Assembly: GCF_964355755.1 (NCBI RefSeq)
Contig: NC_092672.1
Span: 26,418,437-26,482,436, forward strand
Source: Antedon mediterranea
Lineage: Eukaryota; Animalia; Echinodermata
Direction: 5' to 3'
Length of the DNA: 64,000 nucleotides
Position numbers and translations under genes: made by a program. Positions 9,201 to 60,967 of this stretch are shown in pieces (the first letter of the stretch is position 1; the number at the start of each line of letters is the position of its first letter). The notes under the pieces were generated by a model that worked only from the letters and a program-made list of their open reading frames with translations, searched no databases and was not told the DNA's origin.

Positions 9201-12200
9201 TACTCAACCATTAGACTACAGGACCAGCATTTATCAATCATTTTAAGCCAAAGATAGTTAAAAACTATAGTGCTTTTAAAGTGAAAACTTTGTTTTCCAA
9301 AAATGAGTTATCAAATTGTGCTAAGGTTTGGAAACTGACTTAAACAAAACTGTTGACTTAAAAGTTAAGATGATTGTTTTTCTAATTTAGTTTGATAAAT
9401 AGACACTTTAATCTTCTTGTATGTTTTAAACTTAAAATTTAAAGTTGAATGTCAATTCTCTTCACACAGTGGAACTTTCCATGTTTTTTCCAGCTTTATT
9501 GTTGAGTTGAGTTTTTTTTTTAAATTTTCAAATGTTTCACTATTTATAGATTTGTTTGTGAATGATTGAATGAAACAGTATACATTTTTTTCTAGATCAA
9601 ATTGCAATTTACAATCACTTATCAATGGCAGCCAATCAGGACTACATCGTAATCAACAACTTGTACTTGATGCAGTAGATGGCTACAATGTTGTATTAAT
9701 GAAAAAGGTAGGAGAAATAATTTGTGACATAAGTAGGCCATATTGACCAAGTCAAAATTCCTATACTTTTGCCTGATCTGAGCTCTCTACATTAGGTCCC
9801 TTGTTTATATTGACTCTTTAGGTATGGTAAATGGCCCCCTTGCCTTATCGCTCGACCATTTGAATCTGTTCATGAGGATAGGTGGCTTTAAACCAATTGA
9901 CAGGTAGCCCTTTCACATCGCCAAGCAAAAGTTTGGAGTTTATACACTGGAGCTATAACACTGATGTTTGGTCTACTATAGTTGATATAAATATTTGTTT
10001 TATAGGAGCCGGCCAAGCGTAGCCAGCTGTGGAGAATGACAAGTACCGGTATGCTTCAAAACGAAGGATCATGTTCACCACGTAACCCCAACGCAAAACG
10101 CAAAGGCCCTCTGGAAGGCCTTGTTCTTGATATTGCAGAGATGGCAGCAGACTCTACAAAGCCTGTAAATCTGATCTTACAAAAACCAGAAGATGAAAGG
10201 AAGGCAACACAAACATGGTATTTTACAGAGGTACGGTTCTGTCGAAAAGGCATCCTTTTCACACATATATACATGTTCTTTTTCGGTATAGTTGAATACA
10301 GTATCATATAATCTGTAAAGGCATCCTGTCCATACACAAACACAAATACATATCTATGATTTTCAATCATCAGTGGATACTGCCTAAATTGTATACAGCA
10401 TCGCATCCACACATGAACATTTGACTTTCTGTATTGCAGCCTGGGTTTATATCGTCATTATATAAATGTCAACTATTACACAATACTTTTTACAGTTCTC
10501 TTTACTAATGTACTGTAGAATTATTCAATTAAAACCTGTTTTTTGTTTCTAATTTGCAAAAACTGTTTGTATTGTTATTATTATTTAACAAGCCTGTGTA
10601 GGTTTCGTGAGGATTTCCTTTTTGTCTCTTATTTTAGCAGAATTAATTTTGGGACAAATAAAGAAATGTATGTAAGAATGGTCATTAATCTTTTTAAAAA
10701 ACCAACATTAGAGATAGTTATTGTTATATATTTTGAATATTTCAGGATGGTCGCTTGCAATGTAGTTTTGGTGGACTGACAGTTCAATCAAGGCATGGTA
10801 TTATGGGATTAGAACAAGGTAAGATTTTTTTTTTCTGAATGATTAAAGTTTTAAAGTAGAACCATTTACTACTGTACCTGAGGCAGACAGCGAAACACAG
10901 AGGTCTGTGAATTACAGAGAGAATTACATTTAGGGCATGATAGCTCTGTCTATTATTATTCTTTATTGACAACTAGGGATAACAGTGTCCAACATGGCAC
11001 ACAAATAGTAGGTGATCATACAAGCATGAAAATAGCAATAACAGACTTAGATAATATTTTCACTATCTACACTATCAAACTAGTTTGACAAAAAAGTGTG
11101 ATGTTCCCAAACATGCTGGTGATATGTCCAAATATGGTATTGATACTGTATGTCCACATTTTCGTTCACATAAAGTTTGATAGTGTACAGTAGGTTTTGG
11201 GCTAATTCTCATTGAAAATCCGGGGTTTGAGGCCAACACTGCAGGTGTAGGGTCAAGACTGTGCTGATTACTAGCTGCAACATTATGGGAGTACATTTCC
11301 ATAAGTGTGACTGGTGTAATAATGTGAAGCATTAAGTGCTATATGAGAATGACACATTATTATTATTATTATTTAATCCCCATCGCTTTTCGATTTATTT
11401 ACTTCACACAAATTCCTGTTGTCCATTTTGTAAATTATGGGTAGACATATACTTTAGTATTTATGTATTGGTGGAAACTTGTAATCTTATTTGTTGTACA
11501 TGAAATCTGCAAGTGGTAAATGTATGATGTTGAAAATGTCCCATAATACAAATGGAAATGCAACAATTGCAATCCACTGAACACAACCTCAATCATTTTA
11601 GTGCAGTTTGTCATGAACTCCATTGCGGATGCATCTGCTTGATTATGATGAACAGGATATAAAAACAAATATAAAATAGAGCATGGCTAGTTTTCTAGGC
11701 TGTATTTATTTATTAACTTCCAAATGACCAAAAAATATAAGTTTATATATTTAATATGTAGTATTATTGATACAGTATACTGTAGGCTATATTAATGAAT
11801 AGAAGTTGGCTAAATAACCATATACCCATACTTATATACAGTATATATATTATATAATATATGAATATGCACTGAGAGCTCTGCAATTTTTTCTGACTTT
11901 TTTACTTTAATGTTTTTATTTAAGTTTTTGCTTATTTTATTTATATCTCCATATACATCATTATTTCAGTGTTTATTTGTACCTTCATTGAGATCCAGCC
12001 ACTGATACCCACAGCAATGTTATATTTGCAGTAATTTGCCTTTTAATTTATAATATTTGGATAAGTAACATAAACTAACATAATTAAAATGGTGGTTTCA
12101 TGATTTTAAAACTTACAAATCCAATATAACTGAATAGGACTTAAAAATAAAATTTCCCTGAAGTTTTCAAATAATAGCTGCTTTGCTTTAGAATATAGCT

Positions 12201-15200
12201 TTGTAGAAATAAAGTATTAAAATGCTTTTACAAGTACTCTCACATGACATTATACTTCTATTAGAAATTTATATCCTTTCAATATCATAACAAATGCTTT
12301 GTAGTTTTCTGTTTGCTGTTTGTATAGAGTAATTGTGCTGGTTGGAGGTGGGCAGTGACACCCATTATTCTACCATATCCTTTTTAATATTATTATACAG
12401 GGAATAATTTCGCCAGTGTAGCATAGCAAAAAGCTATACAAAACAACCTTATTGCTACACATTTCTAAAATTGTGTAGCAAAAAAGACAATACAAAACTA
12501 TGTTTCTCGACTAAAAAATCAGTTTGATTAGCAATAACTGCTAAACAAAATTTTAAAATGAAATTTTTCCCTGTTATAACAAATGCTTTATCTTGTTTGA
12601 AGGTTTACATGGGGAAATCAAATGTTGATATATACACCATGTATGTTACCACATACGTGGTGTACCACAAAATATGTGGTGTACTGCAAAATCTATATCA
12701 ACAAATGCTTTATCGTTTTCTATTTTGCTAATTCAGTCATGCTATTTTGTAATGTTTCCGTATGCTATACATGATGAATTATGTACAGTAACTTTGCTAG
12801 TTGGATGTAGGCAGTAAACCCCCTTTAAATTCCTCCCACCCAGCCTAAAATTTAATTTAAGGCCTTAATCCACCCAGCTTAACTTCAACACAGCACCGAT
12901 TCAAGAATCCTGGAGTGAAAATACTGTTTATTTTTCAACCCACTCTTGTTGAGTTCAGTAAACTTTTCTAGATATTACCCTTTTTCCACCCACACTTTTC
13001 CCTAAACTTTTTAGACAATAACCTTTTTTCCACCCACTTATTTTTGACAAAGACCCCCTATATTTTTGTAGCTAATACCATGTTTAAAATGCTGTCTTAA
13101 AATTAAAATTCAAGAAATCGTTCAAAATAAATGATAGTATGTAACTTTAGTAATGAAATAGCAAATATCAAGAACATTTAATTGATAGAAAACCTATAGA
13201 TCTAAAATCCTTATACATAAAAATCGTTAATTTATGTAATTAATTAACAATAAAAATGTTTATGTAAATTTTGGCTCTGATGCTTCACCTGCACTCAATT
13301 TCAATATAGCTTTGTTTGACTTGTAAGGGGATTCATCGTACCAAGTACCAAGATTCAGAATTTCTATGAAAATTAATAACAATGTTGACAATATAAAAGA
13401 AAATGCATTTAATAATAAAGCCAAATTGAGTTTGGTTTCTGGTTTCCTGGTTGAATATACTAGGAGGATAAGATGACTGAAAGGAACTGGCCACTCTACC
13501 ACAAAATTCTGAGGCTTGGTAAAAATGAGCTTCTAACAGCTCATTCCCCTATATTCAGAATGAACATGGGACGCACCTTTATCTTACAGTACATAAACAT
13601 CAGATAAGTATTTTCAGAAAGATAAAGTCAGACCTCTTAAAAAACGAAAAAAGGTTTTGCCAACTCCCTTCCAAACACTTATCAAAACAACGGAATTGCT
13701 CACCACATTTAAAAACTCCTTATATTGTTTGACCATACTTTCATAAAGTTTCCCGCTATACTACTGTTTCTGCTTTCTCCATAAGATGTCTATGTGTAGT
13801 TTTGTTGTGATTTTTGTTGTGATGTCGAGTACCAAACAAACTTTTCCTGTGAATGTGAATTTGAGTGTCCAATTGTTTTAATTTACTAAATGGCAATGAT
13901 TCTCTACAAATTGAATACTTCTGTAATAATATTTCCGCTGCTAATTTTTGTAAAGTCTTGTCTCTTTTCGTGCATCTATTTTTAGCTTTGCGTAACTTGT
14001 GAGCATTTCCCGAGTTCTCTGCCTCCTCCCTTGAAGAGTTCTCTAAGTGGCTAAAACACATATTTCCATTATTATACATGCCGTTATTATCTTCATCTTC
14101 TTGTGAATTTAAATCTGCTACATTCTTCAAATTCACAAATAAAGGTTCTTCAGTAAATATATGTGATCTAAATTCCGGAATGTTATCTTCTTCAACTATA
14201 TGATTTATCTCTGGTCTTGGCTCTGACTGGTTATCTTCCTGATCATCAGGTATAAAATTGTTTCCTTGGGATTGTTCATCTTCCCGACTGTGCCGCTTAG
14301 CACGGAATATGCATAAACAAATAAGTGATGTAAAGACAACCGAGATGAAAGCAGTTATGACAGCAAAAACAATGCAACAATGCTTAAAGCAATCTTGGAA
14401 CATATCCTATTCAAAAGAGAATAAATTTACAGTAATAAATGAACTTCAAAATAAAAATTATTCCAAAAATGGACTCTGTTCCTGAAAAATGCATTCGAGT
14501 TGATGGTTTTGGACCAAACACATAATTCCTAACCCATGTGACCGATTAGATAGCAAGCAGGGATTCCCCCTTTTTTTTATTTGATAAATTTTAATGATGA
14601 TGCATGCAACGTATTGGCAGCTATGTTCAACACCCAGTGGGGAAATTAATTGTTTGTTTTGGTTGACTGGTCTTTCTTGTAGGGAATGACTGCAGTAGCT
14701 TGCTGGACATACAGGTCATAGGTCATTGACTGTACTGTACTGGATTCTCATAGGTTATACTGTATCACTGCTTTTATCTTGGCTGTCAGGGGAAAATTTG
14801 AATTTTCATTCAGTTTTGACTTTTGGAAATTCAAATAGGCTACTGTACAATGTGATTTCCAATATTACTTAATATTATACCAGACGACTATTAATATCAG
14901 CATTGGTATTAACATGTTAATTGAAAAACGATATACATAAAACACCAATTCAAAGAATTCAAAGAAATTGTGGTTTTAATGTTTTTGATGCTTTAATTAT
15001 CTAAATTATTAGGAACACAATTTAATGCCCAGTTTGCCAGTAAACCATCTGTATACTGTGTAGTATATAAATCATATTGTCAAATTATAGAAACAGTAGT
15101 TTATCAGTATTTAGGAAACAAGAATTCCTGTAAATACCAGTTTCTTCTATGTTATTTTAGGAAAACAATAAATAAATGCCCAGTCGTCCAGTAAACCAGC

Positions 15201-18200
15201 TAGGTTTTGTAATATATCAGTATTTAGGAAACACAAATTCCTGTAAACACCAGTTTCTATCTTGTAAGAAAACAATAAAAACAATGTAATGCCCATCAGT
15301 CATCCATAAACCAGCAGGGTACTGCAGTATTTGGCAACAAATCCCCTGTAAGTACCAGCTTATCAGAAATCAAGTCAGTATTGAGTTGTATACACACAAT
15401 CATAAAAGGAAGTATGAAAATATAGAAATGTTGGATCCGAAATGTTTATCTTACCTTCTCTTCAGATGTCAGTGCTGTAATGTTTTGTGTCCAGATGACT
15501 ATGGCTATTTATACTGATTTAGTTTATGTTATTTTCCAACCATGTACACGTTGTGTTTCTTTGATTATAAATAAAAACTTGTCAAATTTTTATTGTATTT
15601 GTACAGTACTAAACCACTTGCTTTTATCACAGTTTATTAGCCACAATTAACAGCCTGTACACAGATTGTACGAAACCGTTCAGGTGTATCAACAAGTGTG
15701 CTGAACTTGTAGACTTCCTGGATATTGTCTGCTATTGCTGTGTTATATTGTTAACCCATGTTTTGTATTCATTTTCAAACAACTTCCTTATATATAATTA
15801 TTTATTTGGTAAACAATAAGCACATGACTCAGCAATTACTGAATAGGATATCAACCAATGATTTTGTAAAGGTGAAGTCTCTTATGAGGCATAGTATTGG
15901 CACTGTTTTGGGCATAAGAATAATGCTCCTACACCTGACACTGACAGTGGCAGGCATGGTAACAACCAAGCTAGCATTAACTAAAATGTACCAACTCATG
16001 TCAGACAATTATTGCCACAGTATATAGTACTAATTTTAATTTAAATTAGCTTAAGTATCCGTATTCGTCATTTTATGTTAATTGTGTTCAATGTGTGTGC
16101 CACCGATGTAAAGGTGCAATTTCCAAATAAATTGATTGATTGATTGATTATACCACTATTGACATGTTTAATGTAGGCCTTAGATTTTTTTTTTTGATTT
16201 TTTTTTTTTAACCATATTTAATGAGGGTAATCCATCCAGCTATTGCTGATCATTAGGGACCCTCAGAGGTTCACAAGACAAACATACACAAGATGCTCTA
16301 CATAAACAAAGTCTTATTACAAGTCTTTGGGAGTGGAGTAATTTGGTCCTTAGAAAAAATCCTGACATGTGACGGGACTTGAACCCAGGGCCCTTGGAGT
16401 GGTAGCCAAGCATCATAACCACCAATCCACAACTCCACTCCGAATTCGAATTGGTTGACATATCTGGCCATTAAATGTTAAATCATAATTTAGATTAAAC
16501 TATTTGTTTGGTTTGAAAGAGCAGTACCTGTTATACCATTTATATTCCCATTCATCTGTCTCCAACGACCAGTACAACAGGGTGATCCCTACTCTAAGTG
16601 CATATACACTGGACCTCCAGTTTTAAGTCATCCAAGAAAACTTGTTCTACTGCCAGAACCACAAGCAGAATCTTTAAAAACCTGTTCTGATTTTGTGGCT
16701 AGATTTGCAGCGATATCCTCCCCCCCCCCCCCCTGCCATCAGGTGTGGGAAGGTTTGATTAAATATGATAATTTTATTTATATTACAAACAAAATTGAAA
16801 TTAAACTGTAAAAAGAAAATCCACTACCAATTCCAATCACCATAAATATTTATTAACTCAAATGTAAAAAGTGTCTTAGAAATGATAAGCAAAATATTTT
16901 TTAAGTCAGTTAATTGGTTAATCAATCATTGGCAAATTGTGTTTCACATTTCCAGGCCTCACAAAACCAAGGTTTTGTTGTTCCCCTGAGGGGCAGCCAG
17001 TTTGGTTGCCCTCTCAATATCTTAATGGCCAAAACTGATGCAAAACATTATTGTACTCTTTCATTGGATTTTTACTTGTTTGTCCACCAGGGCTGACCAT
17101 TTTAATTAATTTTTAGCTGCTCTACATCCATTTACGGTTGCCCCGAGGCCAACTGATTCTGCGAGCCAAGTATCATATGTGACACCTGTATCATAGGCAA
17201 TAAGCCTATGACCTAAACATAATACAGGCGCACCTGTGATAGCTTAGGTATATGTGACTTGATATAATGCTGTATGTTGAGATTCAGTACATAGAAAATC
17301 GGGTGCAAAATAATATTACAGAAACATGGTTATATAGAAAAACCCTTTTTTTCTTCAAAAGGATAGCACAGCACCTTTAATGTTTACTGACTCCGGTGGG
17401 TTTTCAATATCAACTTTGCTATCAATAATTCGAAGTTCAGATCCAGCAGGTGTGGGTGACACTGTAAAATAAAACCATTGCATTTGTTATTATGTTATCT
17501 AGTAAAACGCATTCTTAGTTTTATTCATCATCATCAAGATGGCTCACATGGTCCAATTATGAAAATCTGGGCCTATTAAAAACCTTTATTTTAGAATATC
17601 TTTTGGTTTTCTGTTATGAGAAAGTTGAAGCCAGTCTACTTATTTTTAAACAACCTTGTCTACACTATGAAACTTATGTGACAAATTTGATGTGCCCATA
17701 ATATGGACAGGATGAATATATTTGATCATATCACTACCATATTTGGGCACATCACTCCTTTTTTGGTCTTATAATACTGTAATGTCACTTACATTTTGCC
17801 TGTTTGCAAGTTCTTTGCAAAATCGCTTGCATCGTTGATAATGCCTGTTCACATGCAAACTGAAATATAGATAATGAACTAAAAATATAATCAACCTTAT
17901 AATCATTGGAGTTTTCTAAAACAATGCTCTGAGATGAATGTCATAATACATCCTGTGGAGCAAATTTCATTTCATTTCATAGTAACATTTATTTCCTTCA
18001 TAATATACAAAATAAATAATATAATACAAAATTCATGACGAGAAGAAAGATAGTTAAAACAATACAATTTTTTTTTTTTTTTTTTTTCTCATCTTTAAAA
18101 TGAATAAAACAATATTATGAAGGAGGCACAGTTTCTAAAAAGCAAAAGCTTGTGTTGAAAGTGCCTGAACAAAACAAAAAGTAACTAAAATCAAATTAGT

Positions 18201-21200
18201 AAATAATAGTAAATGGGATAGGAATAAAGTAATTACGATAACGGAATATGAAAACAATAAAAAACTGATACCTAGAATATAACTAGTTAATTAATTTACT
18301 TTTGTATTAGATATTGTTTAGTGTTAAAGACGAAGCTATGTTTGTTTGCAGAAGTTGTAATTTTGTTAGGAAGTGAGTTCCATATCTTGGGTCCAGTAAA
18401 TCTAATATTATGTTGAAAAGAAGTCTTTTTGTGTTTAGGAATATGAAGGTTATTGAGGATTCTTGTGGAATAGCCGTGAAATTCATAATTGGGAGAAAAC
18501 ATATCGCGTAAATGAGATGGAAGAAGAGCATTTTGGCTTTTGTAAATAAATAAACATTGTTGGAAAATATTAATATCTGTTAATTTTAATAATTTGAGAG
18601 AACGAAATAAAGGATCTGTACTAGTTCTAGGTGAAACATTTGAAATTATTCGAATGATTTTCTTTTGTAGTATTTGAAGTTTATTTAAATTAGATTTTAT
18701 TTCATTTCATTTATTTATTTCACTTTACAAATATATAAATATAAAGTGGAGGAGCCTAAAAAAAAGCAAAGCTTGTGGTGAATAGGCTCCTCAAAACAAA
18801 ACAAATAAAATATAAATAATATAACACAATTAGAAACTCCAAAAAAACAACAATTAAACTAATATCTTTTCTCTAACACATAAGTTTAACATGTTTAGAA
18901 CTAAAAAAACAAGTAAAAAATAGATTATAAAAATTATTTAAGAAATATCAAATATATCAATAATAAAAGAATTTACAAAGAACCTTCAACCAATAATAGT
19001 TTAAATTGACGTTTAAATAAACGTTTAAATAAAGCACAGTTATGAGATTTTTTAAGAGATAAAGGAAGAGAATTCCAGAGTTTAGGTCCAGTATATACAA
19101 GGGTATTCATTTTAAGTCTAGTTCGAGTAAATGGCAGGTGATACTGATCTTTTTGTCTTGTTTGGTGAGTGTGGTATTGTTTATTTTGAGTGAATTTACT
19201 GGATATTATAGGTGGTAAGTGTCCGGCGGTTAATTGAAACATGATGACACCAACATTAAATCTATAGAGATCCTCAATTTTTAATATTTTATTTGTTTGA
19301 AAGAGATCTTGGGTGTGAGCACGAAAAGTTACCCCTGAGATAATTCTGACAGCTCGTTTCTGGATTAATAACATTTTAGTAATAATTGATTTTGAAGCAT
19401 TTCCCCAAGCAAGAACACCATAATTTAAGTACGATAAAATAAGAGTAGAATATAAAATATTTAATACTTTTTGAGGAAATATTGATTTCAATTTATACAT
19501 CATGCCAACATTTTTTGATAATAATTTGGGAATGTGTCACACCAAACGATATTGCAATATAAGAGATATGGCAAAACAAGGGAGCAGTAGAGTGTTCGGA
19601 GAATATGATGTGGAAGAAAAGATGCCAGTCTACAAATTATACCAATATTTTTTGAGATTTTGTTTTCTGTCTCAATAACATGGGGTTTCCATGTCAGACG
19701 ACTATCAATGGATACACCCAAAAATTTAGCATGATTGACCATGGGGAGAACAGAACCATTTAGTTTAATTTGCAATGGACCTAATTTAATTGGCATCGTA
19801 CTACTTCTAAACAAAACATAGCTGCACTTTTTTAGATTTACAGAAAGGCTGTTTGCCAGAAACCATTCGGATACATTAATTAAACTTGTATTTACAGTGT
19901 TAAATAACGACTCTAAGTGTCGATTTTTACAGATTAGTGTTGTGTCATCTGCATATAAAAAGTAAGATAAAGATACTGACGAATTGTAAATATCATTCAC
20001 ATATAAAAGAAACAGAAAAGGACCTAGTAATGAACCTTGTGGTACTCCACAGGTAATAGGCAAATAGTCTGATTGGGAATCACAAAACTTGGTACATTGG
20101 TAGCGGTTGGATAAATAGCTCTTAAATAAATTGAGAGGAACACCGCGAATACCATAGTGATACAGTTTTGAAAGAAGAATGGGATGGTTAATGGTATCGA
20201 ATGCTTTCGATAGATCGACAAAAACACCAATTGCAAACTCATCATTTTCAAATGCATCTATTATTTCATTGGACAAATCAATTAAGGCCATTGCGGTATC
20301 AAAATGTTTGCGAAATCCAAATTGCTTATTGAATAGAATATTATTTTTTTCCATAAAGGCATAGGTTCTATTATAGATAATTCTTTCTAATATTTTAGAA
20401 AATAGCGAAAGGACTGAGATCGGTCGGTAATTAGATAAAGTGTCCTTTTTTCCTGCTTTAAAGATGGGAGTAACTCTTGCCAATTTCAATTTATTTGGAA
20501 AAACTCCTTTTGTTAAAGACAGATTAAATATGTGACATAGAGGTTTAACCAAAAGGGAAATTGATAGTTTAATAACTTTTGGACTGAATTCATCAAGTCC
20601 TTGCGCTTTATTAGTTTTAAAACAAATTCAAGAGTAAGAAGAAAACGTTTTAAAGAATCCATCTTGCCCAAGAGACTACGTGTATTAAAATGGATAGTAG
20701 ACAAAACATTTTTATCATTGTTATGCTTAGAGAAATTCTCTGAGAATGTTTCTGGATCAAAATAATTAGATTCATTTAAACTAGCATAAAATTGAGAGTG
20801 TGGATCAACATTTTCGTTAATATTCATGTTCTCGTATGCCACAAAAGGGTTAAATTTCACATCAGTTGTAGGGTTGGATTGGCACATTAATTATAAGGTA
20901 TCATAGATAATTTAAACATTAGGTAAAAGTTAACAATAATATAATAAAATAAAAAACTAAATATAACAATAATTAAACATAAAACAATTCTGTATAGTGC
21001 TGCCGTATTACTGGTAGCGTAAGCGTTGCACTCCCCGTGTATAAAACGGAGAATAATACATTAGGTATGCAACCGGGTATGCAAAGGTATAATTTGCATA
21101 ATAATGGTACGTAGCGGACATACTTGGAATTTAAACAAGCAAAGCCAGGTTAAATATACTGAAATTACAAAATGAAAGAAGGCAGAGAAAAAGAAACCAT

Positions 21201-24200
21201 TCATATCTCAGTTCCTCAAATCACCGTAAAAGTTACTTGAATATATAGGGAGTCCCCGTAGAAGTTCGCCATTTACCAGCAGAGAATTTAAGTTTAGTTC
21301 CATTGTCATATAAAGCTTTAACTTGAAATTTCCATTTCTTCCTTTCTTTATAATCCACTAAGGTCAGATCATCTATCACGTAAAACTGTTTATCTTGTAA
21401 GGCAATATTCTTCTGTTTCATGACTTGAATTTTAGAGTTATAACTAAGTAGTTTAATTATAATGTGTCGGGGCCTCACCGGTAGTACAGGACCGACTCGA
21501 TGTGCACGCTCTATCGTTGGTATTTCACTAAATTCAAAGTTATCTATTAGAATGTTCCTGGCCAAGACAACACAATCCTCACCTGATTCTTCTTTAAGTC
21601 CCACAATTCGAACGTTGTTACGTCGGCTGAAGCGTTCGGATTTGTTGGCCTCTAGTTCAAGCTTCGCAACCGTAGATGATAATTTATCAACCGTTTGTTC
21701 GAGTTGACCAATCTTGTTAGCCTTGATAATATCGTTTTCTTCGAGTGCTGCGATTCTGTCCGAGTTAAATCCAATAGCTTGGTTCAAATCCTCTTTAATT
21801 TTTGCCTGCCCATCTAATAATGATTTTAGGGAAGCATGTACAAAATTGTTAAAGTCCACAGGGTTGGAACAAGCACTTTCAATATCGGCTGGGCGAGAGC
21901 GAGTCTTGGGTTTGGTGGCCATGATGCATACACGCCGTGTAAATTGTAGTCAAATGAGGAGCGCTCGCTATACACGTCTTATCCTGAGCACGTCATTGAT
22001 ATACTATAAATGTCGCCCTCTATACAGTACTATGTTTTTTTATTTATATTTGTTCTATTTTATATAATGCATATCCTTGGTTAATGGTTGGTTATTAATA
22101 TGATGCTTAAATTCTCAATTATTAGGCCATTAAAAAAGGCAGCATGCAGAATTTTGACCGCGCAGTAGAACAGTTTTAAGCAGCACACACTACAGGTTGT
22201 TTTTTCGAATGTCACCAATGCTGCAGCATGGCACAACATTTTTACAACAAACTGAACATGCAATAGAGCCATTTAATGGAACCATTATATTTTACTTCTA
22301 CTTCATATGATGCAGAATTAGAACAAATGGCAAGGGATATTCTTTTATCATGTTATAATGTAACCAAATGAATTAAAGCAATAACTAGTAATATTAAACA
22401 AACCTGAAGGTTGTCTGGATATCTATGACTCCATACAAGTAGAAGAGCAGAGAAGACATCACCAGTTCCTTTAAATGACATCTCTACCTTGGGATACTCA
22501 ATTTTAAAACCAGTCTTCTTTCCATCTATAGGCAAAAGCACACAGTGCAACATGTTTATTATTGGTCCCTGGGTAAAGACATTGAGCTTTAGAGCAAAAG
22601 CACAGTCTCTGACCCCCACTCACAATCTCAATGGATTTCCTTTAGTGGTGGACACTCCTCAAATGAACCAAATATTTATAATATACTACTCACATTACTC
22701 TCAAATTTTGAAAATTTAACAACAAGTGATTCCTGCTACTGTATGTATAATTTGTTGAACTGTAGGCAACTGTAATTTGTTGCATGCAATTATTGTAATA
22801 TGTATCACTTGTGATGCCTGTATCGTATGTCATAGACCTATCCTCCACCATAAAATACGGTACTACAGGCACCAGATGTGATTCATGCAACACAACAGAA
22901 TTGCCTTTCAGACTGGATAATTTATGCTTGAATTTGGAGGTGTACAGAGAATTTGAATCATTATGCAATGGTCATTACCTTTGATCTGTGTTCCAATCAA
23001 TGTTAGTGTATTTTCATTGCCTGTTTCATAGCTGCTAAGTATAACTGTCTTTACTCCTTTATCATGTAGAAACTGAGTAGCTTTTAATGCTTCTTCTTCA
23101 TTGGTTATTTTCGTCCCACTTAAAAGTCTAACAACCAAAAATGTGAAAGATAACTGTTTTGAACTATCCGATTATTCTGGGACCGATAGATCCAGGAATT
23201 ATGAAATAGGGTCGAGCACCTAGGGCCTAAACATTGTTAACAGCTTAACTTATGTCCTTTCCGTTTGCACATTTCAATTTTCAAACTTGTAGTTAGAAGC
23301 CAGCTAAATCCACATATTCATACGTGCATATCAGTTGCACGCATGTGAAAGGCATGATCACATATGAAAGGTTGTAAGTAATCAATATTGTAATTGAGTA
23401 TTGAGAATTTACAATCTTTTTTTATTTTCCTGGTCACCATTGAATCTAATTGTAGGAGCTAATCAAACTTTTGTCAAATGGTAACTCTTCCATGATTGTT
23501 GTCCATAGTTCGAAATGTGTGCATTTAGGAATTCTTGGCAGATTCAGAATTTTTAACAGAGGAGCACTAACTATAATATAGTATGTTTAAAATATATATC
23601 AATAATTTCATTTTAAGAGAGATTGCGCCCCCTGTATCTGTTCCTTGGCTTTCCAATGTAAAATGTTACCATAAAGTCAACTTTTAACTTTGACTTACTC
23701 AGCCTCAAACTGATTTGGTGTAATTATGTCTGCCAGTGGTAACAGTTCATCGCGATAAATTGGCATCAGTTCTTCTGGGACATAGTAGCAGCCGTTATCA
23801 CCCATGACTGGATCACACAGATATATCACATTTGGATTGGCTTGTTTTGCATCTTTTACCACCTGTACAATCTCACGAAGGAAAGATGGTGAGCCTACAC
23901 CACCTGTGAATAATGTAATATACTTGTTACAGATTCTTTTGGATTGCAAAGTAATTGCATTGTATGTATTATTATTATTAGTTGACATTCATGGCTGGTG
24001 TAGTGCTATTTTTAACCTTCTAAACAAAGTATCAGTAGGCTGCTGAGACTTAGCACAAATGCAATTTCATGAGGTGTATATTTAGTGTAGCGGTACATCC
24101 TGTCTAAATTCTGAATTTTCTATATTCATTTTCTATTTATACATAATTTCATTTGTATACCTAATAATAATGTAGTCTCGGTTGGAGTGGCTTTTTCTTA

Positions 24201-27200
24201 TTCTCATAGATTTTCTCATCTTTCTCATTTTTAGTTAGTTAATTAATATTCGGTATATCATTGACAAAGCAAAACATACTAATACAAAAATAGAATTGTT
24301 ATCTTGATATAACCCACCACCTCCTATATGAAATTTCCTAAATCAACAATACATATAATACTCTATAGAAAAAAAGAGGATGATTTAATCATCAGCCCCG
24401 ACTAATTCCACTAGGACACAGGGATGCATAAACAACAAAAATAAAAGCACTTAGAAACTGAGTGAAGTACTTGGCAACAGAGTGGCGTGTTAAAAGAAAA
24501 ACAAAATTATTTGTAAAATTATTAAATTTTCTTGAATGTTTGTCATGCAAACAAACGTACAAAGCAATTGTACTATATAATAGCAAGCTTCTGTTTTTTC
24601 AAGTAATAAGTAATAATAAAAGCATTTTAATAAACAAATTATAAATAAGATTGAATCTAAAATTAAATCACCACTCAATAACTAGTGCAGTTCAGAGCAT
24701 ACAGTACTTACCAGTTAAAATATGAGAATAAATATTTATGTCATTTTGCTTGATACAATCATACAGACGTTTGAGATCATTACCATTTAAGATCTGACCA
24801 TCGTTCCAAACCTTATATGCTATGTTTGTGCATTGCTGCATTGCATTGATAATATCTACTTCATATCCAAGTACCTGAAAAAATTAATTTAAATGTATGC
24901 AACAACACTTAAATGTTCAAAAATATGGTTTCTTTCTCATTTCGTCAGTACAGTATTGAGCACCATCCAAAATATGACAACTGTAATAAATTTGAACTGC
25001 ACTTTTTTTTTCTAAACCTTTTCTTGTAATATAACTAAAACAATGCTTTCAATATACTGTATTTTGAAGTCATTACCAACAAAATGTTTGTGGTGCCATA
25101 TTATGTTTTTGAAGGCTAGAACATTTATTATAACTTTATTTACATATTATATTATGATTGATAACTTAAAATCGGTGCTCTATGGTCTTTTTTTATTGTT
25201 TGTATAATTTGTTGGAGATACTGTGATTAATATTTTACAAAATGTAGTTTTGGTTAGGCATTGTATAGATTCCTTGACCCTTTTTTATTTTATTTTCTTG
25301 GTTTCTGGTTTGATCGAAGGCATGACAAGGATGCTAGGATTAATGAAGTTCTTTAATATCAAGATTCAATTGATTCAAGACATTGTAATTTATCAAGCAA
25401 TTAAACATGCGTGTGATTTTCCTCTGCCATTGTCATATAAATATATGCTTTTTATCAGCTGGTAATAGTAATTAAACTACAATATGGTATACACACTCAC
25501 AAATAATATTTAATAGATTAATGTTATAATATAGTAAACATTTATATTCATAGTCCACACAGCCTAATAATATTTAATAGTTTATAGTAATGTTATATTT
25601 GGTCATTCATGTTTTTCATATTGTATCATGCAATTATGAAGTACAAATATGCTTATTCATCATAAACATTGAAAATACTGTATTTACAGTGTTTAAATAA
25701 ACAGAAAGAACCAAAATTGTTTCTTAGTCCAAGCTTTGGACTCAAAATTGTCGAGTCGAGTGGCCGAGCAGTTTGGTTTAAGGCCCTCGACCATTTTTTT
25801 TTGTGGTAGAACAATTCTTCTCGGATAAGGACTTAAAACTAGAGGTGCAGTGTACTCATCTGGCCAATGTGCACTTTAAAGAACCCAGTACATCTTTCGG
25901 AAGAGTAGGGAGTTACCCCGGTGTACTGTTCCATTCATCCCCTGCCGTTGAGGACAGACGAACAGGCGCCATTTGGTGGCAGCACTCGACATGAATGGAT
26001 CCTTAACGGAGAAGAAAGTTTTGTATGTGTAGTCCACATCTGTTCACAATTCAGCCCTGTAGGCTGCCAGTCGCAGGTTATTCCCCCATTTACATTTATA
26101 TATAGATATATAAATTTACAGGCATATATACTGTAAATAAATTTGATGGTCAAATAAGAAATTCTAAACTGCCTATATAAAAATAATATAATTAATAGAT
26201 ATATCATAAATTGATCATATTTTTTAATAGAATATAAATTTTACTATCAAAACAAACATGTTTTGGTTTGTCCAAACACTGGACAAAAATATCTCTGATA
26301 AAAACTGAATAAATTAAATTACAATGTAAAGATCTTTTCTTCAAGAGAGAGTGACCCATCTACTACTGTAAATTTGTACCTTGCTGGAACATTATCACCA
26401 TCCTCTTCCTTGTTTTTCACTCCTTTTGTTTTTCACTAAATAAAATGCACAATATCTAACCTGCATTGGAAACACAGCTGCCTTGTTTCCAATATATCCA
26501 GACACAACATGAATTTGTATGGACAAAACACGGCGCTCGTGTACCGACATTTTTGATTGTCAAAAAAGAAAATCGACACAATTAGATACAAACACACTTG
26601 TAAGAGCTCCCAAATTAAACAAAGTGATCAAAGGATTTTTTTTATACTGCCGTCATAAAGTTACAGTAGTCATTTTGACTAGATCCGCCTACCTATTGCA
26701 TATTCAATGATTTTGATGACATCATCATCATGAAAGTCAGTTATTTTAGACTTGATTGTCCAAACCTGTTGCATATTCAATGATTTTGATGACATCATCA
26801 TCATGAAAGTCAGTTATTTTAGACTTGATTGTCCAAACCTATTGCATATTTAATGATTTTTAAGACATCATCATAATAAAGTCAGTAATTTAAGACTTGA
26901 TCTGCCTACCTATTGCATATTCAATGATTTTGATGACATCATCATGATCAAAGTCAGTCAATTTGATAATGTGCCAATTCAATTTGTATCCCTAGATCCC
27001 TGGATCTAAATTTCCTGTATATCCCCTTATTATGTTGTAATTTTCACCATACTGAGGAGATAAAAATTGTCACAGATTGTCTGTCTCCCTTCCCCTATTT
27101 TATGTAAGACTTGTTTACGGTGTGGTCCTTTGTGGTGAATTTGGCAGTACACCGAGAGGCGATACCCTACTCTTTTTCAAAGAGTATACTGATAGTTCTT

Positions 27201-30200
27201 TAACATGCACATTAGCCATGTTCCAAAACAACTTAACGTCTTCCAAAAGACTACTACTGTTTACATGACACACGGAGAATGTCGATGGGAATTGAACCGT
27301 ACACCAAAGGAAACCTATAGTATTTCATGGTTCAGCACACAACACAGTGGACTACCACCACTTTAGCCAACTGTGCTAAAGATGTCACTATCTCATAAAA
27401 ATATATATTTTAATTTACCAGATGAGGCAAATACTGTACATCCTACCATCATATTTATTATTTATATTATGGTTAGTAGTGTGATGATGATATTAAATTA
27501 TTTGTATTATTTTTTGATGATTTTCAATGGAGTGATCCTTGACCACATATCTCATATCATATCTGTATTTTCATTTTAGTAAAGATCTTGCAATTACTTT
27601 TCGAGTAATCCTGCTAACAAACAAACAGACAAACAAACACGCGCGATCGGCTACATATACTTAGTGGAGGTAAATAACAAAAGCTGACAGAGAGTTGTAA
27701 CCTCCGGCAGGGAGAAAATGTGAAGACAGATCTAAAATTATGACTCAGATCCTAACCAAAATCTAATAGAGTTTACCTTTTACAAACCTTTGCATTCCCT
27801 GCGCAAAAATCTGCTCATCCGTATTGGAATTTATAAAACATTCTCTTTAGAGGATAACCGAAAGTTGAATTCATGACATGTTTAAACTTCACAATGATTA
27901 TATGTTCTACTTTCAGGCACTCCAGCTGTGCTCGGACCTATGAGCTCCATTAGTAATGATAAAACACCACCACAAGAGCAGCGTGTAGAACGACTGAAAC
28001 ATCGGCCTGGCTCAGGAAGCCTTACTTGCAAAGTGATATCAGATGGACCTTCTAAAGTGCTAAGAATAACAGACAGCTTTCCACAGGTACACATTGTACT
28101 TACTGTATTATTAACCCGATTCTCTGTATTGCATCTCACATATGGCATCATTTGTCCAATATCATACAGTAGGCAAACTATGTATACTCTGTCACATATG
28201 TATCACATGTGTCGCCTGTAACATGTAAAGGTTATAGGTTTCTGGCTTAGCCATCACACGTGATACACACTATATGTGACACTGTATTAGAGAATTTGCC
28301 TATGATAGGGACACATTATAGATAGATCCGGATATTAAAAATATTAATATAAGTACTGTGGAACTTTCATACTCCAATCCTAGTGGTTATTCCAAGCCCC
28401 GTAGCCAATGGGGGTTTCAATGGATCAAACAACCTCCTGAACCAGCAATAATAAAATGCAGACCACCAGCGGAAAAGTGATCGTAACTTATGCTGATTTT
28501 TGCCCCTTTTGTAGAACAATTGAATTCCTCAGACAAAAAAAATATGTACCATACTAAAAACCATTTATTTATAATAGCAACATTTTTTTTTACAGAAACA
28601 TTTTCAAGTTTCAAGTGTTGTGAGCAACTCTGGGTTTGTATCAGATTGGGAAGTAGTAAATAGTCAAGAGGTCAAAAGTCAAGAGAAGAAGAAGTCAGCA
28701 GATCCGGCTGTAACACCTAGTGATGATGCTGATTCCATGCAAGAACTTGAAGTAAATTTTGTTGTTAAATAACTATACTAATAGTGTTATATGTTAGAGA
28801 TGTTTATACTGAGCATTCTGTTCATAACATTGTTCGTTCATTTGACAGTGCTCCATAAATTGGCAGTCCATTTGTAGTAAAAATTGACATGCTTCAAATG
28901 ATGTCATTTTAGTGTTTAATAAACCAGGTCATGACACCCACAACCATATTCATATAACATCATTTTTAGGGTATTGGAAACTAGTAATAACCAACATCAT
29001 TGGTATAGAATTTGTAGTTTGTTATCTCAGCATAATTCATTTCTTAATGTAGGTGGCACTATGGCTGAAGAGTGGGATTGGAATTTCACTTGTTAACAGT
29101 TTGCCAGAGGAGATATTGTACTGCTCACTCAACAACATTGATGTTCATTACCTTGATGCGGTGACTGGCCTATATATAGATGCAAACATAGATGATATTC
29201 AGGTATTGTAGTAGTGATAATAAAAATCCTCAAATTTCCAACCCCAGACATGAAACTAACTAACCCTACAAAGGATGTTTTGGCATCATTGTTTTAGAAC
29301 CAGCACCATAGGTTTAAAACCATTGTCATTGTTGGTTTAGAACCAGCTTTCATTCCATATCCATCAGTGAAAATCTTTTAAGCAATTTAAGTAATCTCAC
29401 CTCAGTAATTGCTGTTGGTCTTTTTGCCCTGGGAGACACCAGCAAACAGAGCTTTGTAATGTTTACTTGACCTACAGTAGTTATCCATGAACTTTCACTT
29501 GAATAGTTTTGATTTTCAGTCATTTTTGTTTTGAATAAAACTATTTTTTTACTTAGGTTGATAACCAATTAATGAATTCCTTGAAACCAGTAGTATTGTA
29601 TAAAAATCAAGAGAACAACAATAAAGCTCCATTACTTGACTTCCACATCAACAAGTTACCGTCAGCTGGACATGATATCAATATTTATAAGGTAATAATA
29701 AATACAGTATTAATTTAAACAAATAAAAAACAAACTTCTGATGCATGTACTTGTCCACTATACAATAATATTCACTCATTCATTTATATTGACCCCCAAA
29801 AACATTAAAAATGAAGGTTAATAAATCAGACTTACTTTTGAATAGGCTACTTGTAGTTTTAATAAAATTAATCACTGAAAAAAGATGCAACCAAAAAGAC
29901 AAAATGATTTGTATTTTTTTTTTTTTGTATTTTGTATTAATATTTGTCCTCAGTGAGGAAATTCGGATTAGGCCCTCCACGGACCCACGGCAGCCAGCAG
30001 TGCAGCGCCTACAGATTTCACTTATAGAAAAACAAAATAAACAGTTAAATTTAACCAAAAACTCATTGTCTGAAAGAAAGATTTACTAATGTTTACTTTA
30101 AATTATTTATCAGGAAAATAAACTTTTTTAATACAATTTTGAATATCTATGTTATTTTTTCAGGGGAACAATATATTTTTTAAGTATTCACAAAAATAAT

Positions 30201-33200
30201 GGTGAAAAGGATTTTTAAAAAAGTAACTAATAATAATAGTTCCAGCCCAATATTTTGCACAAGCATAATAGAACATTTAGTTGTTGTTTAAGCTTGGTTT
30301 CCACTAGGACGCAAGTCATTTGACCAATCAGAAGCAATGGATTATTCAAACTTTGGCTTATCATTGATCAACTTGCTTGCATCGTGTTACATTGTTGCGT
30401 TGTGTTGTGGGAAACAAGCTTAAGGCAACATCCACACATATTATATTGTACTATCTTTTTCTTTTTATTACATCTTTTTATGTCTAGACTTTGATGATGA
30501 ACATGCAGAATGTGATTCTACAAATAGAAGAGCTAATGTTGCTGAAGTTGTTTGAATTTTTCAAGTATGGAGATGAGGAATCCAACATTGAAACATCAAA
30601 TGAAAGCCGTTATGATGTATTCAGGTTAGTGAGTTTGACTAAAGGAGCCCAAGACTCAGTGGCGTAACTGCTATGAGCGCTCACTGGCTAAACCCAGGGA
30701 ACTCGGAGCTTAAAGAGCCCTGATTCAGTCTGTTTGAAGACCCTACAGATTTGGTTAAGATTAAAAAATATATATTGTCCTGCGCTAAGCACTTAAAAAC
30801 ATATTGCTTGTTTTATTTGTTAATCATTTAGGGTATAATACTGTAGTAGTGTAAATAACTCCAGCTTGCCTTTGCCTCATCTTAATGTTCTGTACCCATT
30901 ATGTTAACATCAACTGTTTGTTAAAGGACAACTTGACCGACGACCATATTTTTACAACGTATTAGGGATGTACAGCCGTCGCCGTCAATTGCTGTGACGT
31001 CAATGGTGCATTGCAATACTTCTCTTGTATGTTAACAACAGTGAAAACTAATTAAGTAGATGCACGATTGATGTCACAGCAATTGACGGCGACGGCTGTA
31101 CGGCGAGCGCGTGCGACGATATCCTTAATCTCGCGATTGTTCTGAAATCATATGTACATCCCTAATACGTTGTTAAAATATGGTCCTCGGTCAAGTTGTC
31201 CTTTAAGAATATTAATATACTATGTAATCTGCTAACGGCTAGGCTACTCCCTGCTCAGAAATAATATTGAGTTTACAATACAAATTTCAACATGCTTAAA
31301 GAGAAAGCACCTCACTGGCTTTTAATAAATTTAATTAATTTACTTTATTTCAGAACAAATGCTTCATTAAGCCAAGCTAAAAGATTTTTCTTTGAAACCA
31401 TCAAAGTAAGCACAGCAGAGTTTCGCTTGACAGTTTTGAAATCCGTCCAGTTGCCTCCACGATACAAGCAACTCAAATCCAGGATGCAACTTATGTTGAT
31501 ACAGTTTCAAGATGCACCAGTGACTCTTGACCCCTTCACACGTGTACACGCCTTTGAGACCCAAGAGTTATTGCTTGAAGCGGTTTCTAAACACTATACT
31601 GAAGTGAGTAATTTGATCATATAATAATACCTTTTTCACACCAATATGAGGTTTGCATAGTGTGAACGCAATTTTGTGGAAAATCTGACTCTATGAAAGA
31701 CACACACCAGCAAGGACGAGGACAGTTCTGACTGTTCCGAGTTGTTACTATACATGTATTGTATACTGTACTTCAAAATTGCCCTTGTATTTAACTGACC
31801 AGTCCATGCATAATAATAAAAAAATGGCACCCACTATACCTTTTTCCAAGATTTCACAAGGTTTTTTTAATGTGTGTATGACAATGCATAATAAACCCAG
31901 GAGATCAAAGTAATGTAACAATTTTAATGCAGATGTCAAAATTGTATACTGTAGGTGTATTGCCATTTTGTATCTTGAGCCATGCATTACTTTTTATAAT
32001 GACTGTGCTATTGCAGCACACTCAGTTGTACACATTTTGAGAATTTGTGCAAATTATCCTGTAAAAAACATATTGTAGTCGAAGGCTTAAATAATTGTTA
32101 TTTCACAGGAATTGAAGAGCCAAGCAGTAAAGATCCTTGGAGCTGTGGACTTCCTAGGCAATCCTATAGGATTACTACAAGACCTCCGTGATGGTGTAAG
32201 GGAAGGGTTAGAAGGAAACGTAGCTGGACTGTTAAGAAACGTTACTCATGGCATGTCCAACACAACAGCAAAGGTAAGTGAAATATTTATAATTATATTT
32301 TACAGACAAAAATATTTTGAAATTGAATATTATCATACCATTTGATATTTAAATATTAATATTTATTTCTATTTTTTGCATACAAAAACAAAGTAACTTA
32401 ACAAATTTATTTTAATGATAAAAAAGATTGACTTTTCGAAATCTTCTGATGGTTTACAAAATTGCAATTTTTGCAACTAATTATAATAAACATCTCCCCA
32501 AAATAATATATTTAAACAATCATTTCAAAAAAAATGTTTTGTTGAGTTCCGATAACGTAATAATAATAAATAATAATACATTAAATTCAAAATCATTAAA
32601 CATTAATTAATTTCAGATGGCAGGGACGATTTCAGCAGGTATTGGCTTGGTCACTATGGATCGAAAACATCAGGATATACGCCATCAGATCCACAGATCT
32701 CACGGTGAATCTGGTGTCGGACATTTTATGGCTGGTGTCAAAGGTCTTGGATTTGGAGTTGTTGGTGGGTTAACCAGCGTCTTTACGCAGTCGTATCAAG
32801 GTGCAAGCAAAGATGGCGTTGAAGTATGTGTACTTTTGTGTCAATAATATATTTTTAAAAGATGAATCCAATTACGAAGAGAATGAAACATGTTTTCTAA
32901 AGCTCTGTCTACATTATCATAACTATTTGACAAAAAAAGTGTGTTGTGCCCAAATATGGTTTTGATATGACATCATCATGTCCATATATAGTATGACATC
33001 ACATTTTTTGTCACATAAATTTTGATAATGTAGACAGAGCTTTTAGGAAAACTAAAGGCTAGAAGTAGGCTTTGTTGACACAAAAATAGAAATATATATT
33101 TAGAGGCTCAGGTTTTTTTTTCTTACAGTAGAAGCCCTATTTTAATAAGTGGATACCTTAAGGAATAAAAATGTGTCTCCTTTATAGTGGTGTCCCCTGA

Positions 33201-36200
33201 ATAGAAGTTAATGTTTCTGTTAATCTAAAAAAGTGCTGTTGTATGGTGTTCAAAAATTCACAAATACCACTAAATACTAGTACTTTTAAACTAAAAATTA
33301 AAGATCAATTAATACCTATTGTTGAGAAAACTAAATTTCTTGGTGTTTATCTGGACTGTAAGCTAAATTGGAAACATCAGATTACTCAAGTCGAAAACAA
33401 AATATCCAAAAGTTCTGGTATCATATATAGATTATCATCTTTCATCCCTCGAAACATACTCCGGATTCTTTACTGTTCACTAATCCTCCCTTACCTCACT
33501 TACTGTAATATTATTTGGGGTAATACATACCCGTCCTACTTAAACAAACTGTTATTGATCCAAAAGAAAACCGTAAGATACATAGCAAATGCTCCTCCTT
33601 TATCCCATTCCAATCCTTTATTTTCTTCATTTGGTCTTCTTAAAATTCAGGATATTAACCATCTTCAACAAAGTGTTTTCCTCTATTCATGGCTAAACTC
33701 GATCCTGCCATCACACTTTAATGATTTATTTAGTTTCAATCTTAATTTTCATAACCACAGTACTCGGAGCGCAAATCAAATACGTATTCCTTTTTTTAAA
33801 ACTACTTCTTTTAAACATAGCATTAAGTTCACTGGTCCTAAACTTTGGGATAACGTACCAGTTAATATAAAAAGTGCTTTGTCTAAGAAGAGTTTTTCTT
33901 TTAAATTGAAACGGCACCTCTTATCTAGTTATGTTTAATTATCCTTTCACTCATTGTAGTTTTGATATTTAGTCTTTTCGGTACCCTGAATCTAAAAGTC
34001 TTCATTACTGTTTTTGTCCTGTTTCCGGTTCCCGTGTTGTCCTGTTTTTTTTTTTTTCATTTTCTATGGGCTGCCTTATACAAGCTTTGCTTTTTAGGAA
34101 TGTTGCCCCTCTTATTTCAATAATTTTTACTGCTAATTTTTATTTTCTATGAAAGACAAGAGAAATAAATGTTACTTTGATTGATTGATTGATTGAATGG
34201 TTGTGCTAAAACATACATTTCCCCTTGTTCGGTTCATAGGAAAGTATCCATTTGATAGCTTTAATAGGGGTGTCCCAAAGGAGGAGTTCTACTGTGTACT
34301 GTATACTGTTACATATGCTATGTTAACTCACCTAAATCCTATTCTTCAAAGTCCCAAATGTTTTGTAATATGGAAAACGCATTATGAAGCCTTTTGAATC
34401 ATATGATGAGTGTGTGATTTCTGACAATTGTCACTGTAAAATAAATATTGGAAGAAATGTAATTATGTTTTGGTTTATTATTAATTTTTCAAAAATGTTG
34501 TTTAACAGGGTCTTCTAGCGGGGTTTGGCAAAGGCATTGTTGGCACGTTCACTAAGCCTGTAGCTGGTATGTTTGACCTAGCCTCTGGTACTGCAGCAGC
34601 CCTAAGCTACACCACAAGTAGCGCAACCAATCAAATGCCTTCAAAAGTGCGCAAGATACGATGCTGTGTCAATCAGGCTGGTGTTTTACCTCAATACACA
34701 ACACATGATTCTACGGGACAGGAATATATGAGAAAGATTAGTGAATCAGAAAGCAAAGAAACGTAAGTGAAGTGAAATTGATTTTAGGATTTTAAAATAA
34801 CTAGGACAGCACAATTTTGTTCAAACATTATTAATAAACTTCGGTCGGTCTACACTATCAAACTTCATGTGACAATAAAATTTGATGTGCCCATATATGG
34901 ACACAATGATGTAACATGTTTTTTTCACAAGTTTGTACTGCCATTCCTGGTACCACTAGCAGGTGTCATTCAAAAGATGTGATCATAATGCCACTCTTAT
35001 AGAATGTGTAATTTCAATTCATTGTAAGATTTCAGAGCCATTTTAAAATGATGTTCTTTTTGTGCAGTAAATTTATTTTATTTATTTTTTGTTGTTAATC
35101 GATAAGATTTGCCATTTTGCTTGCATGTATCATCAACATAATTCATTACTCTTAAATTAGTTTATCATATTCAAGTACAAAATCTGTATCCATAGAAACT
35201 ATAAAATGAATTCGTTATTGCAAATATGATTATTATCTATCTGAATTAAGAAAACAAGGAGAACAAAACATAAAAGAACTTAGACAATCCAATACATCTA
35301 TAATATACAAAACCAACCAACCTCAGATTTTATTTAATTTCATTGTTTTTTTTCAGGTATGTAGCATTTGAGACTTTAAGAGATAATGCCACAGAAGGAA
35401 TGCAAGCCTTGATAACCAGTGAATGTGTACACTTTCTTGCCGATTCGGACCCTCTTAACCCGGTGCTAACGGTCTGGTACTCAGAACTATACCATGCTAA
35501 CCATCTGAAAGTTGGTGAGTTACTCATCTTAACAACTAATAAAGTCTAGAATAATTGTTATAAATATTAAAGAGGAAATTTAATGTGAGAGCAATTGTTG
35601 TCTCTTATTGACATCCTATCGTGCATCTCCCAAGTACCCCAAAAATTGCAAGAGATTCCGGCTAAACTGACAATTTTTCTGGACTGTTTTGGATATGCCA
35701 AAACATAGCAATATAAGACATAAATTAACCAAGACTCGACTACTAGTTTCTTTTTAATAACTAAAGCATTGGTTGGCACATTATCAGTATATTCCATGCT
35801 TTGGAAAGTTTCCAAATACATTTTCCCAGTAAGGATCTGTGCGTCTTGTCTGGTTTTGACTACATAATTTCCCATCCCAGGGGTGTCCGGTATTGTTGAT
35901 GAGATAGGTTGACAGTAATCCTGGGGTTTGACTTGACAAGAAATTTCTTCTTGCAATTTCCTGTATTAATGTAATTGTTGTATTGTTTAATTAGTACCAT
36001 TTTTTTTTTTTTGTTGACCATTGATAGAAATTAATAAATTCATGTAGAATCAGTACAGTACTTGTATATCTCTACTATTCTATCACAGGGCCTAAACATT
36101 ATGTCGAACTAACAAAACAAGCATATACAGAGGCTGGTGTTAGCCACCCTCATCTAAGTCCAAAAGAAAGGCCAAGAGTAGGATGTGATAATGAGAATAT

Positions 36201-60930: not shown

Positions 60931-60967
60931 CGATACGATACTGATACATTTTTTTTTTCAGGAGGCC

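Follow-up and report, generated by a model that had tools for sequence, protein, structure and literature searches.

A gene of the pyridoxal kinase (PDXK) family was found on the minus strand of a 64,000-nucleotide (nt) stretch of the genome of the crinoid Antedon mediterranea (contig NC_092672.1, positions 26,418,437 to 26,482,436), which is the whole stretch analysed and is called the window here. The gene consists of seven exons separated by six introns, all with GT-AG ends. As predicted, these exons splice without a stop: the joined exons (903 nt) encode 300 amino acids (aa) followed by a stop codon, in a frame without internal stop. The product was shown to be identical to RefSeq XP_071945958.1 (P0121), 'pyridoxal kinase-like isoform X1', so that the gene, described as hidden in the original prediction, is already annotated, though by family name only. 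RefSeq isoform X2 corresponds exactly to skipping of exon 6, which shifts the frame. Two RefSeq isoforms usually reflect transcript evidence. The parts of the gene, all on the minus strand, are the following.

26461..26550, minus strand: exon 1 (aa 1-30) with the ATG, I13 (human S12; codon 26514-26512) and I20 (human V19; codon 26493-26491)
24712..24874, minus strand: exon 2 (aa 31-85) with the pocket loop A41-M42-Q43-Q44-C45-T46-N47-I48-A49 at 24844-24818 and a one-residue insertion, D55
23699..23903, minus strand: exon 3 with G86 (human Y84; 23901-23899), DPVMGD (23814-23797), the lid residue Y125 and TPNQFE (23721-23704)
22979..23127, minus strand: exon 4
22404..22525, minus strand: exon 5 with K221 (human V231, Escherichia coli PdxK K229; 22472-22470) and the GTGD anion hole with the catalytic D225 (22469-22458)
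17860..22403, minus strand: intron 5 (4544 nt), containing a broken element of the long interspersed nuclear element (LINE) type
17793..17859, minus strand: exon 6 (67 nt), left out of RefSeq isoform X2
17355..17461, minus strand: coding part of exon 7 with the TGA stop
17070..17354, minus strand: probable 3′ untranslated region, with ATTAAA at 17106

Three PDXK-family genes were found in A. mediterranea, a count taken from protein records and contig matches, to which further copies or pseudogenes may have to be added. Besides XP_071945958.1 these are P0002 (XP_071954997.1), which has a canonical pocket and is the separate canonical PDXK for which the original prediction had proposed to search, and P0019 (XP_071956917.1). 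P0002 showed 79% identity to XP_071945958.1, and both P0019 and P0003 (XP_033117147.1), from the crinoid Anneissia japonica, showed 75%. The motifs DPVMGD, TPNQFE, GTGD, IQIH and QQCTNIAY were found where they had been predicted, LTGG arises across the exon 2/3 junction, and the human numbering given earlier (S12, F43, H46, T47, Y84) holds in an alignment to the PDB 2YXT sequence. In human and sheep PDXK, S12 is described as bonding the pyridine nitrogen and T47 the 3-oxygen, with D235 as base, and T47, F43, V231, V19, H46 and Y84 pack against the ring (PMC3412620); V41 and F43 are also reported to mediate pyridoxal binding (bioRxiv 10.1101/2020.04.05.026310).

An alignment was made of 109 proteins of 275-345 aa, after removal of isoform X2 and of ten rows that were near-duplicates or mis-modelled, and 63 columns with at least 95% conservation among the 107 other proteins were compared. 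P0002 departed at none of the 63 columns and P0003 at one, compared to eight in XP_071945958.1 and nine in P0019. Six departures were common to the latter two (below, the altered copies): human S12 (I in both), V19 (I in both), V41 (M in XP_071945958.1, I in P0019), H46 (N and P), T47 (I and K) and Y84 (G and C). In addition, the L that echinoderms have at the F43 position is Q in XP_071945958.1 and R in P0019, and the T that crinoids have at the V231 position is K in both. The changes at V19, V41 and V231 (V19I, V41M and T/V231K) had been overlooked earlier. The claim that the pocket residues named there are all changed thus described a real pattern, but the comparison with human PDXK overcounts slightly: the canonical crinoid copy already has L at F43 and C-T for S44-N45, which are not paralog-specific, and at F43 only the step from L to Q is. 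The Arg of P0019 at the F43 position is the substitution that cuts mouse PDXK turnover fivefold and abolishes artesunate sensitivity (bioRxiv 10.1101/2020.04.05.026310); P0019 also carries P127L beside the lid tyrosine.

The changes in XP_071945958.1 are concentrated in the pocket. When the pocket was taken as the nine contacts named in PMC3412620, seven were changed. Changes were rarer at the remaining conserved columns (three of 55; Fisher p = 6e-6) and at non-pocket columns in general (40 of 254; p = 1e-4), p-values that are somewhat flattering because the gene was chosen for this pattern. The two unchanged contacts are Q11 and D235 (human numbering). The corresponding enrichment in P0019 (p = 2e-5) includes three changes common by descent. 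Rows that span all six columns numbered 244 (the 109 proteins plus rows of at least 100 aa from searches of short proteins and of 50%-cluster representatives); 194 of them showed no change, 33 one, 12 two, three three and two six. All six columns were changed only in XP_071945958.1 and P0019, other rows having at most three changes, and the animal PDXK pocket is nearly invariant, with 0 or 1 change in 227 of the 244 homologues. Two further PDXK homologues, P0366 and P0327, have H46, T47 and Y84 changed and an aromatic residue before GTGD, possibly a separate pocket variant.

Outside the pocket the enzyme is preserved. The human ATP and metal, anion-hole and catalytic residues D113, D118, N150, E153 and G232-D235 all have counterparts in XP_071945958.1, and D115, D120, Y125, T146, N148, E151, S185 and G222-T223-G224-D225 are intact in both altered copies, as is Q12 at the human Q11 position. 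The residues for recognition of the B6 ring (S12, T47, H46, Y84, V19) are not found and are replaced by I13, I48, N47, G86 and I20. XP_071945958.1 passed the TIGR00687 profile (252 bits, cut-off 144.5) and failed NF006034 for the E. coli PdxK type (111 bits vs 342). A structural model showed a mean predicted local distance difference test (pLDDT) score of 95 and a template modelling (TM) score of 0.93 to human and mouse PDXK (2AJP, 6YK1). Thus, judged by its sequence, the protein is a PDXK by descent and predicted fold and not a canonical pyridoxal kinase by its B6-recognition residues. Assignment as a kinase of hydroxymethylpyrimidine (HMP) or its phosphate (HMP-P; TIGR00097) was rejected, with 65.5 bits against a cut-off of 204.95.

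In a tree of 21 proteins the crinoid sequences were arranged as (Anneissia P0003, (P0002, (XP_071945958.1, P0019))). XP_071945958.1 was placed within the crinoid PDXKs with support 100/100, and as sister to P0019 with support 100/98; the sisters have 14 derived residues in common, including I13, I20 and K221. In the best tree the duplication falls after the Antedon-Anneissia split (support 86-91), and an earlier date was not rejected (approximately unbiased test, p = 0.119). Both P0002 and P0019 lie on a 30.6-Mb contig and the XP_071945958.1 gene on a 39.0-Mb contig. In genomic contigs of run X2, the exon 3 acceptor of P0019 was found at the same place as that of XP_071945958.1, and exons 4 and 5 of a paralog were parted by other sequence. 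The altered copies are DNA-level duplicates; an origin as retrocopies was rejected because both have introns. The canonical P0002, with no departure at the conserved columns, would have left the duplicate free to change. A DNA-level duplication in crinoids would have fixed I13, I20 and K221, a second duplication may have put one copy into an intron of a VPS13D-type gene on another contig, and afterwards the two copies would have taken unlike residues at five more pocket sites.

The reading that we put forward for XP_071945958.1, and to which we give about even credence, is an ATP-dependent kinase for a hydroxyl-bearing small molecule other than B6. Mg-ATP would bind as in PDXK through D115, D120, N148, E151 and the GTG anion hole, and D225 would act as base upon the substrate hydroxyl. 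The replacements S12I and T47I would leave the pyridine nitrogen and the 3-hydroxyl without their two side-chain hydrogen bonds, Y84G and H46N would take away ring-packing side chains and leave a roomier pocket, and K221 would place a positive charge or an amine where the 4′ group of the vitamer sits. From these changes a substrate is predicted that would be larger than B6, would have no nitrogen in the ring and may bear an anionic group or a carbonyl; to name a compound from the diet, or an aromatic metabolite of the animal itself, would be a guess. Solved PDXK structures hold ginkgotoxin, theophylline, artesunate, luteolin and roscovitine according to PDB entry titles, and crinoids are described as making anthraquinone and naphthopyrone compounds (PMC11766827), none of which is linked here to these genes. 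In a wider and rather doubtful version, a feather-star B6 kinase would have turned into a small diversifying family of natural-product kinases, with a nitrogen-free aromatic hydroxy compound, e.g. a polyketide pigment or a dietary toxin, bound in the shared I13/I20/K221 pocket and each paralog tuned to a different one.

The new lysine bears on a different explanation. K221 aligns exactly with K229 of E. coli PdxK, the Lys directly before GTGD; K229 is described as necessary both for product inhibition and for holding pyridoxal 5′-phosphate (PLP) tightly in aldimine form (PMC3404986). The crinoid lysine is fixed in the two altered copies and rare among homologues: K before GTGD was found in four of the compared rows, two of which are the altered copies. 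The tree points to a separate gain in the crinoid clade and not to a common origin with E. coli PdxK. B6 might thus still be handled, in a different way, either by a slow kinase in which K221 captures pyridoxal or PLP through a Schiff base, the protein serving as PLP buffer or carrier, or by a version insensitive to a natural PDXK inhibitor. That E. coli PdxK works without equivalents of H46 and T47 is consistent with an altered B6 enzyme, and insensitivity is suggested by mouse PDXK V41W and F43R, which keep 50% and 20% of turnover and lose artesunate sensitivity (bioRxiv 10.1101/2020.04.05.026310), with P0019 having the same Arg. However, the S12 and Y84 equivalents are retained in E. coli PdxK and PdxY and both lost in the altered crinoid copies, the step from T to K is a single base change that may be chance convergence, and six or seven ring contacts were lost together, far beyond the single and double mutants tested. 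We regard a persisting B6 role of either kind as unlikely.

The scaffold and the catalytic machinery are under purifying selection. Neutral simulations at per-lineage distances of 0.12-0.25 gave 13-23 changed columns among the 55 conserved non-pocket columns, compared to three observed, and none of 3000 simulations gave three or fewer at any of four distances; neutral evolution, named in the original prediction as a refuting case, is thus rejected for the scaffold. Changes spared conserved columns (3 of 55) compared to variable ones (21 of 76; p = 0.001). A P0019 exon 3 contig differed from the window in 38 of 193 letters, four of them intronic. Among the 23 visible differences every amino-acid change matched P0019; at least 11 differences in the exon were synonymous and at least 22 non-synonymous. 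The synonymous distance (dS) was 0.28-0.52 and the ratio of non-synonymous to synonymous rates (omega) 0.32-0.71, depending on how the unseen differences are split (p against neutrality 0.007 to 0.38).

A redundant duplicate that is decaying into a pseudogene would be expected to evolve fast, and the protein does so about ten times faster than its canonical relatives; it has an insertion of one residue and a loop deletion of six, and the LINE fragment in intron 5, the frameshifting isoform and the occurrence in one species also fit decay. Against this, no stop, frameshift or broken splice site has appeared in spite of a synonymous distance to the sister of about 0.3-0.5 (p = 3e-4 to 6e-8 for intact frame and splice sites under neutral change), the conserved columns were spared as given above, and three of the four coding differences seen between the window and the contigs of runs X1 and X2 are synonymous. 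We consider decay highly improbable.

The eight ring-contact codons accumulated at least 13 changes over both paralogs (1.62 per codon), compared to 74 in the 253 other codons (0.29), a rate about five times faster. Omega was 1.0-2.0 in the pocket and 0.18-0.36 elsewhere under assumed tree lengths of 0.35-0.7. The proposal of a kinase for a different small molecule is strengthened by the second paralog, in which the same pocket positions are changed, but a pocket evolving at 1.0-2.0 times the neutral rate also fits a pocket that no longer matters. In that case what is maintained would be the binding or hydrolysis of ATP, or a role as a partner that tunes canonical PDXK in a dimer, and the pocket would drift; the retained fold and ATP site, the pocket omega compatible with 1 and the unlike residues of the two paralogs agree with such a role. 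However, D225, Q12 and the lid Y125 are retained in both copies, and phosphoryl transfer is therefore apparently still selected. Besides, I13, I20 and K221 are fixed in both copies (p = 0.03-0.13 if neutral), which leans towards a new selected state, and two separate copies would both need keeping for a role in which the pocket is irrelevant. We regard that role as unlikely.

Several results weigh against a kinase for a new substrate. The excess of pocket change over neutral gave p = 0.015-0.52 over four tree lengths and was significant only at the shortest, so that a pocket selected for a new substrate cannot be told from one that has merely lost its constraint. The unlike residues of the two paralogs at five pocket sites (M/I, Q/R, N/P, I/K and G/C in XP_071945958.1 and P0019) are likewise what lost constraint would produce. 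The whole protein is relaxed, with 0.24 changes per site from the split in the altered pair compared to 0.022 in P0002 and, in relative-rate counts, 46 unique changes in the altered compared to seven in the canonical copy (p = 4e-8), and an invariant non-pocket glycine is altered (G70C), a change that also fits a pseudogene. The omega estimate comes from one exon with 23 of 38 differences visible, and its least favourable split is not different from 1 (p = 0.38). The structural model was guided by an alignment of canonical enzymes, mostly reflects the family and is silent on ligands. B6 activity may persist, since mouse PDXK with one pocket residue mutated retains 20-50% of turnover. Beyond A. 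mediterranea, no altered orthologue appeared in searches with exon 3 against longer proteins (best 120 of 623), with residues 1-110 (31 matches), among short proteins (113 matches) and among 50%-cluster representatives (best 150 of 5155; close relatives collapse), a negative that speaks against long-term conservation, but weakly, as crinoids are barely sampled.

A hint of expression came from a contig of run X1, a run of uncertain kind that is guessed to be RNA and also has unspliced pieces. This contig fits 17461-17070 with three differences in 392 nt, and departs from the window precisely where exon 7 begins, with 72 letters beyond. The extra letters are close to the size of exon 6 (67 nt). 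Its other end lies 36 nt past ATTAAA, and a contig of run X2 reads through the exon 7 acceptor into intron sequence. The run X1 contig resembles the spliced 3′ end of an XP_071945958.1 transcript.

Antisense nesting of the kinase gene within a VPS13-type host gene is well supported, as plus-strand VPS13 exons lie on both sides and an in-frame GT-AG junction (10818/27917) brackets the kinase gene. Upstream, VPS13_VAB Pfam matches were found at 2790-7944 on the plus strand (best E 1.5e-10); downstream, 34506-34763 on the plus strand matches the C-termini of human VPS13A (E 1.8e-6) and VPS13C (E 3.9e-5). Of the other downstream host exons, searched singly, one had a weak VPS13A match (E 0.55) and the rest none in Pfam, Atlas or PDB. 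The nesting in a VPS13D intron that had been predicted is thus borne out for the VPS13 family, but subtype D was tentatively assigned because a ricin-type lectin sits after the VAB repeats, an arrangement with the lectin inserted in the VAB region being described for VPS13D (PMC7613979), and not by direct alignment to a VPS13D. Both the subtype and the exact ends of the host intron are putative assignments.

10007..10818, plus strand: upstream host exons, with a ricin-type lectin-like part at about 10007-10231 and a further exon at 10746-10818
10819..27916, plus strand: putative host intron of the VPS13D-type gene, GT-AG, 17.1 kb, taken from the in-frame junction and not from reads
27917..34763, plus strand: downstream host exons, of which 34506-34763 resembles the C-terminus of human VPS13A/C

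No terminal inverted repeats or target-site duplication were found flanking the kinase gene. A unit of 71-73 nt is repeated four times in tandem at 26691-26980, starting about 140 nt upstream of the kinase ATG, where the promoter is likely to lie. The LINE-type fragment in intron 5 (about 18300-21950, minus strand) has the same orientation as the kinase gene and contains an RVT_1 match at 19500-20627 (E 3e-34) and, upstream of it, a 238-codon frame at 21233-21949; a run X1 contig carries about 1.27 kb extra at 20623, and the copy in the window looks internally deleted. In the same host intron, a 216-codon open frame on the minus strand (13756-14406) encodes a hydrophobic stretch, then basic residues and an acidic tail, with no clear Pfam match, and is likely an exon for the transmembrane and cytoplasmic parts of another antisense gene nested there. 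In run X1 a contig over 13000-14291 had a depth of 74; in run X2 its depth was like that of single-copy sequence.

Elsewhere in the window, all on the plus strand, were found a 245-codon frame between host exons without clear Pfam match (33201-33938), at 44189-46078 a THAP domain (E 4e-13) and, after it, a frame for a Mutator-like transposase (E 3e-7), a single frame of 452 codons encoding a HECT domain (E 3e-10) at 52504-53862, and a 302-codon frame for a rhodopsin-family G protein-coupled receptor (E 2e-18) at 60896-61804.

No published description of such pocket-altered PDXK paralogs was found in a search that left most subscription journals outside, and literature listings gave nothing relevant on alanine mutants of S12, H46, T47 or Y84. 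The crinoid paralogs represent a variant of a known enzyme, apparently not described before, made by the ordinary route of duplication followed by pocket divergence and seen in one species. Two intact copies form a natural experiment on how the drug-binding pocket of PDXK sets specificity, and the set of three genes, which annotation pipelines name pyridoxal kinase-like throughout, masking the pocket difference, supplies its own control for direct assay. Phosphate chemistry so far unknown in echinoderms would come to light if the altered copies act on a metabolite of the crinoid or on a compound from its diet, and if K221 traps PLP, an animal would have separately gained the product-trapping feature of E. 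coli. A family of natural-product kinases would be the first case found of an animal PDXK switching substrate, with a phosphate-conjugation route undescribed in echinoderms.

Compared to animal PDXK (EC 2.7.1.35; human 2YXT/4EN4, sheep 1LHP/1RFU, mouse 6YJZ), XP_071945958.1 shares the fold with 44-48% identity, the ATP and metal ligands, the GTGD anion hole and the catalytic Asp. It differs in that S12, V19, V41, H46, T47 and Y84 are replaced, with Q at F43 and Lys at V231, and in having a canonical copy beside it in the same species. P0002 and P0003 represent the parent lineage of the duplicate; unlike in it, their pocket is complete and their evolution about tenfold slower. P0019, the sister with the 14 derived residues and the same intron position before exon 3, differs by I, R, P, K and C instead of M, Q, N, I and G at five pocket sites, and by P127L. 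E. coli PdxK (b2418) also has Lys directly before GTGD and lacks equivalents of H46 and T47, but is only 27% identical, keeps S23 and Y96 (human S12 and Y84) and is a proven B6 kinase. ThiD, the HMP/HMP-P kinase, has the same ribokinase-superfamily fold (Pfam PF08543), whereas XP_071945958.1 descends from animal PDXK.

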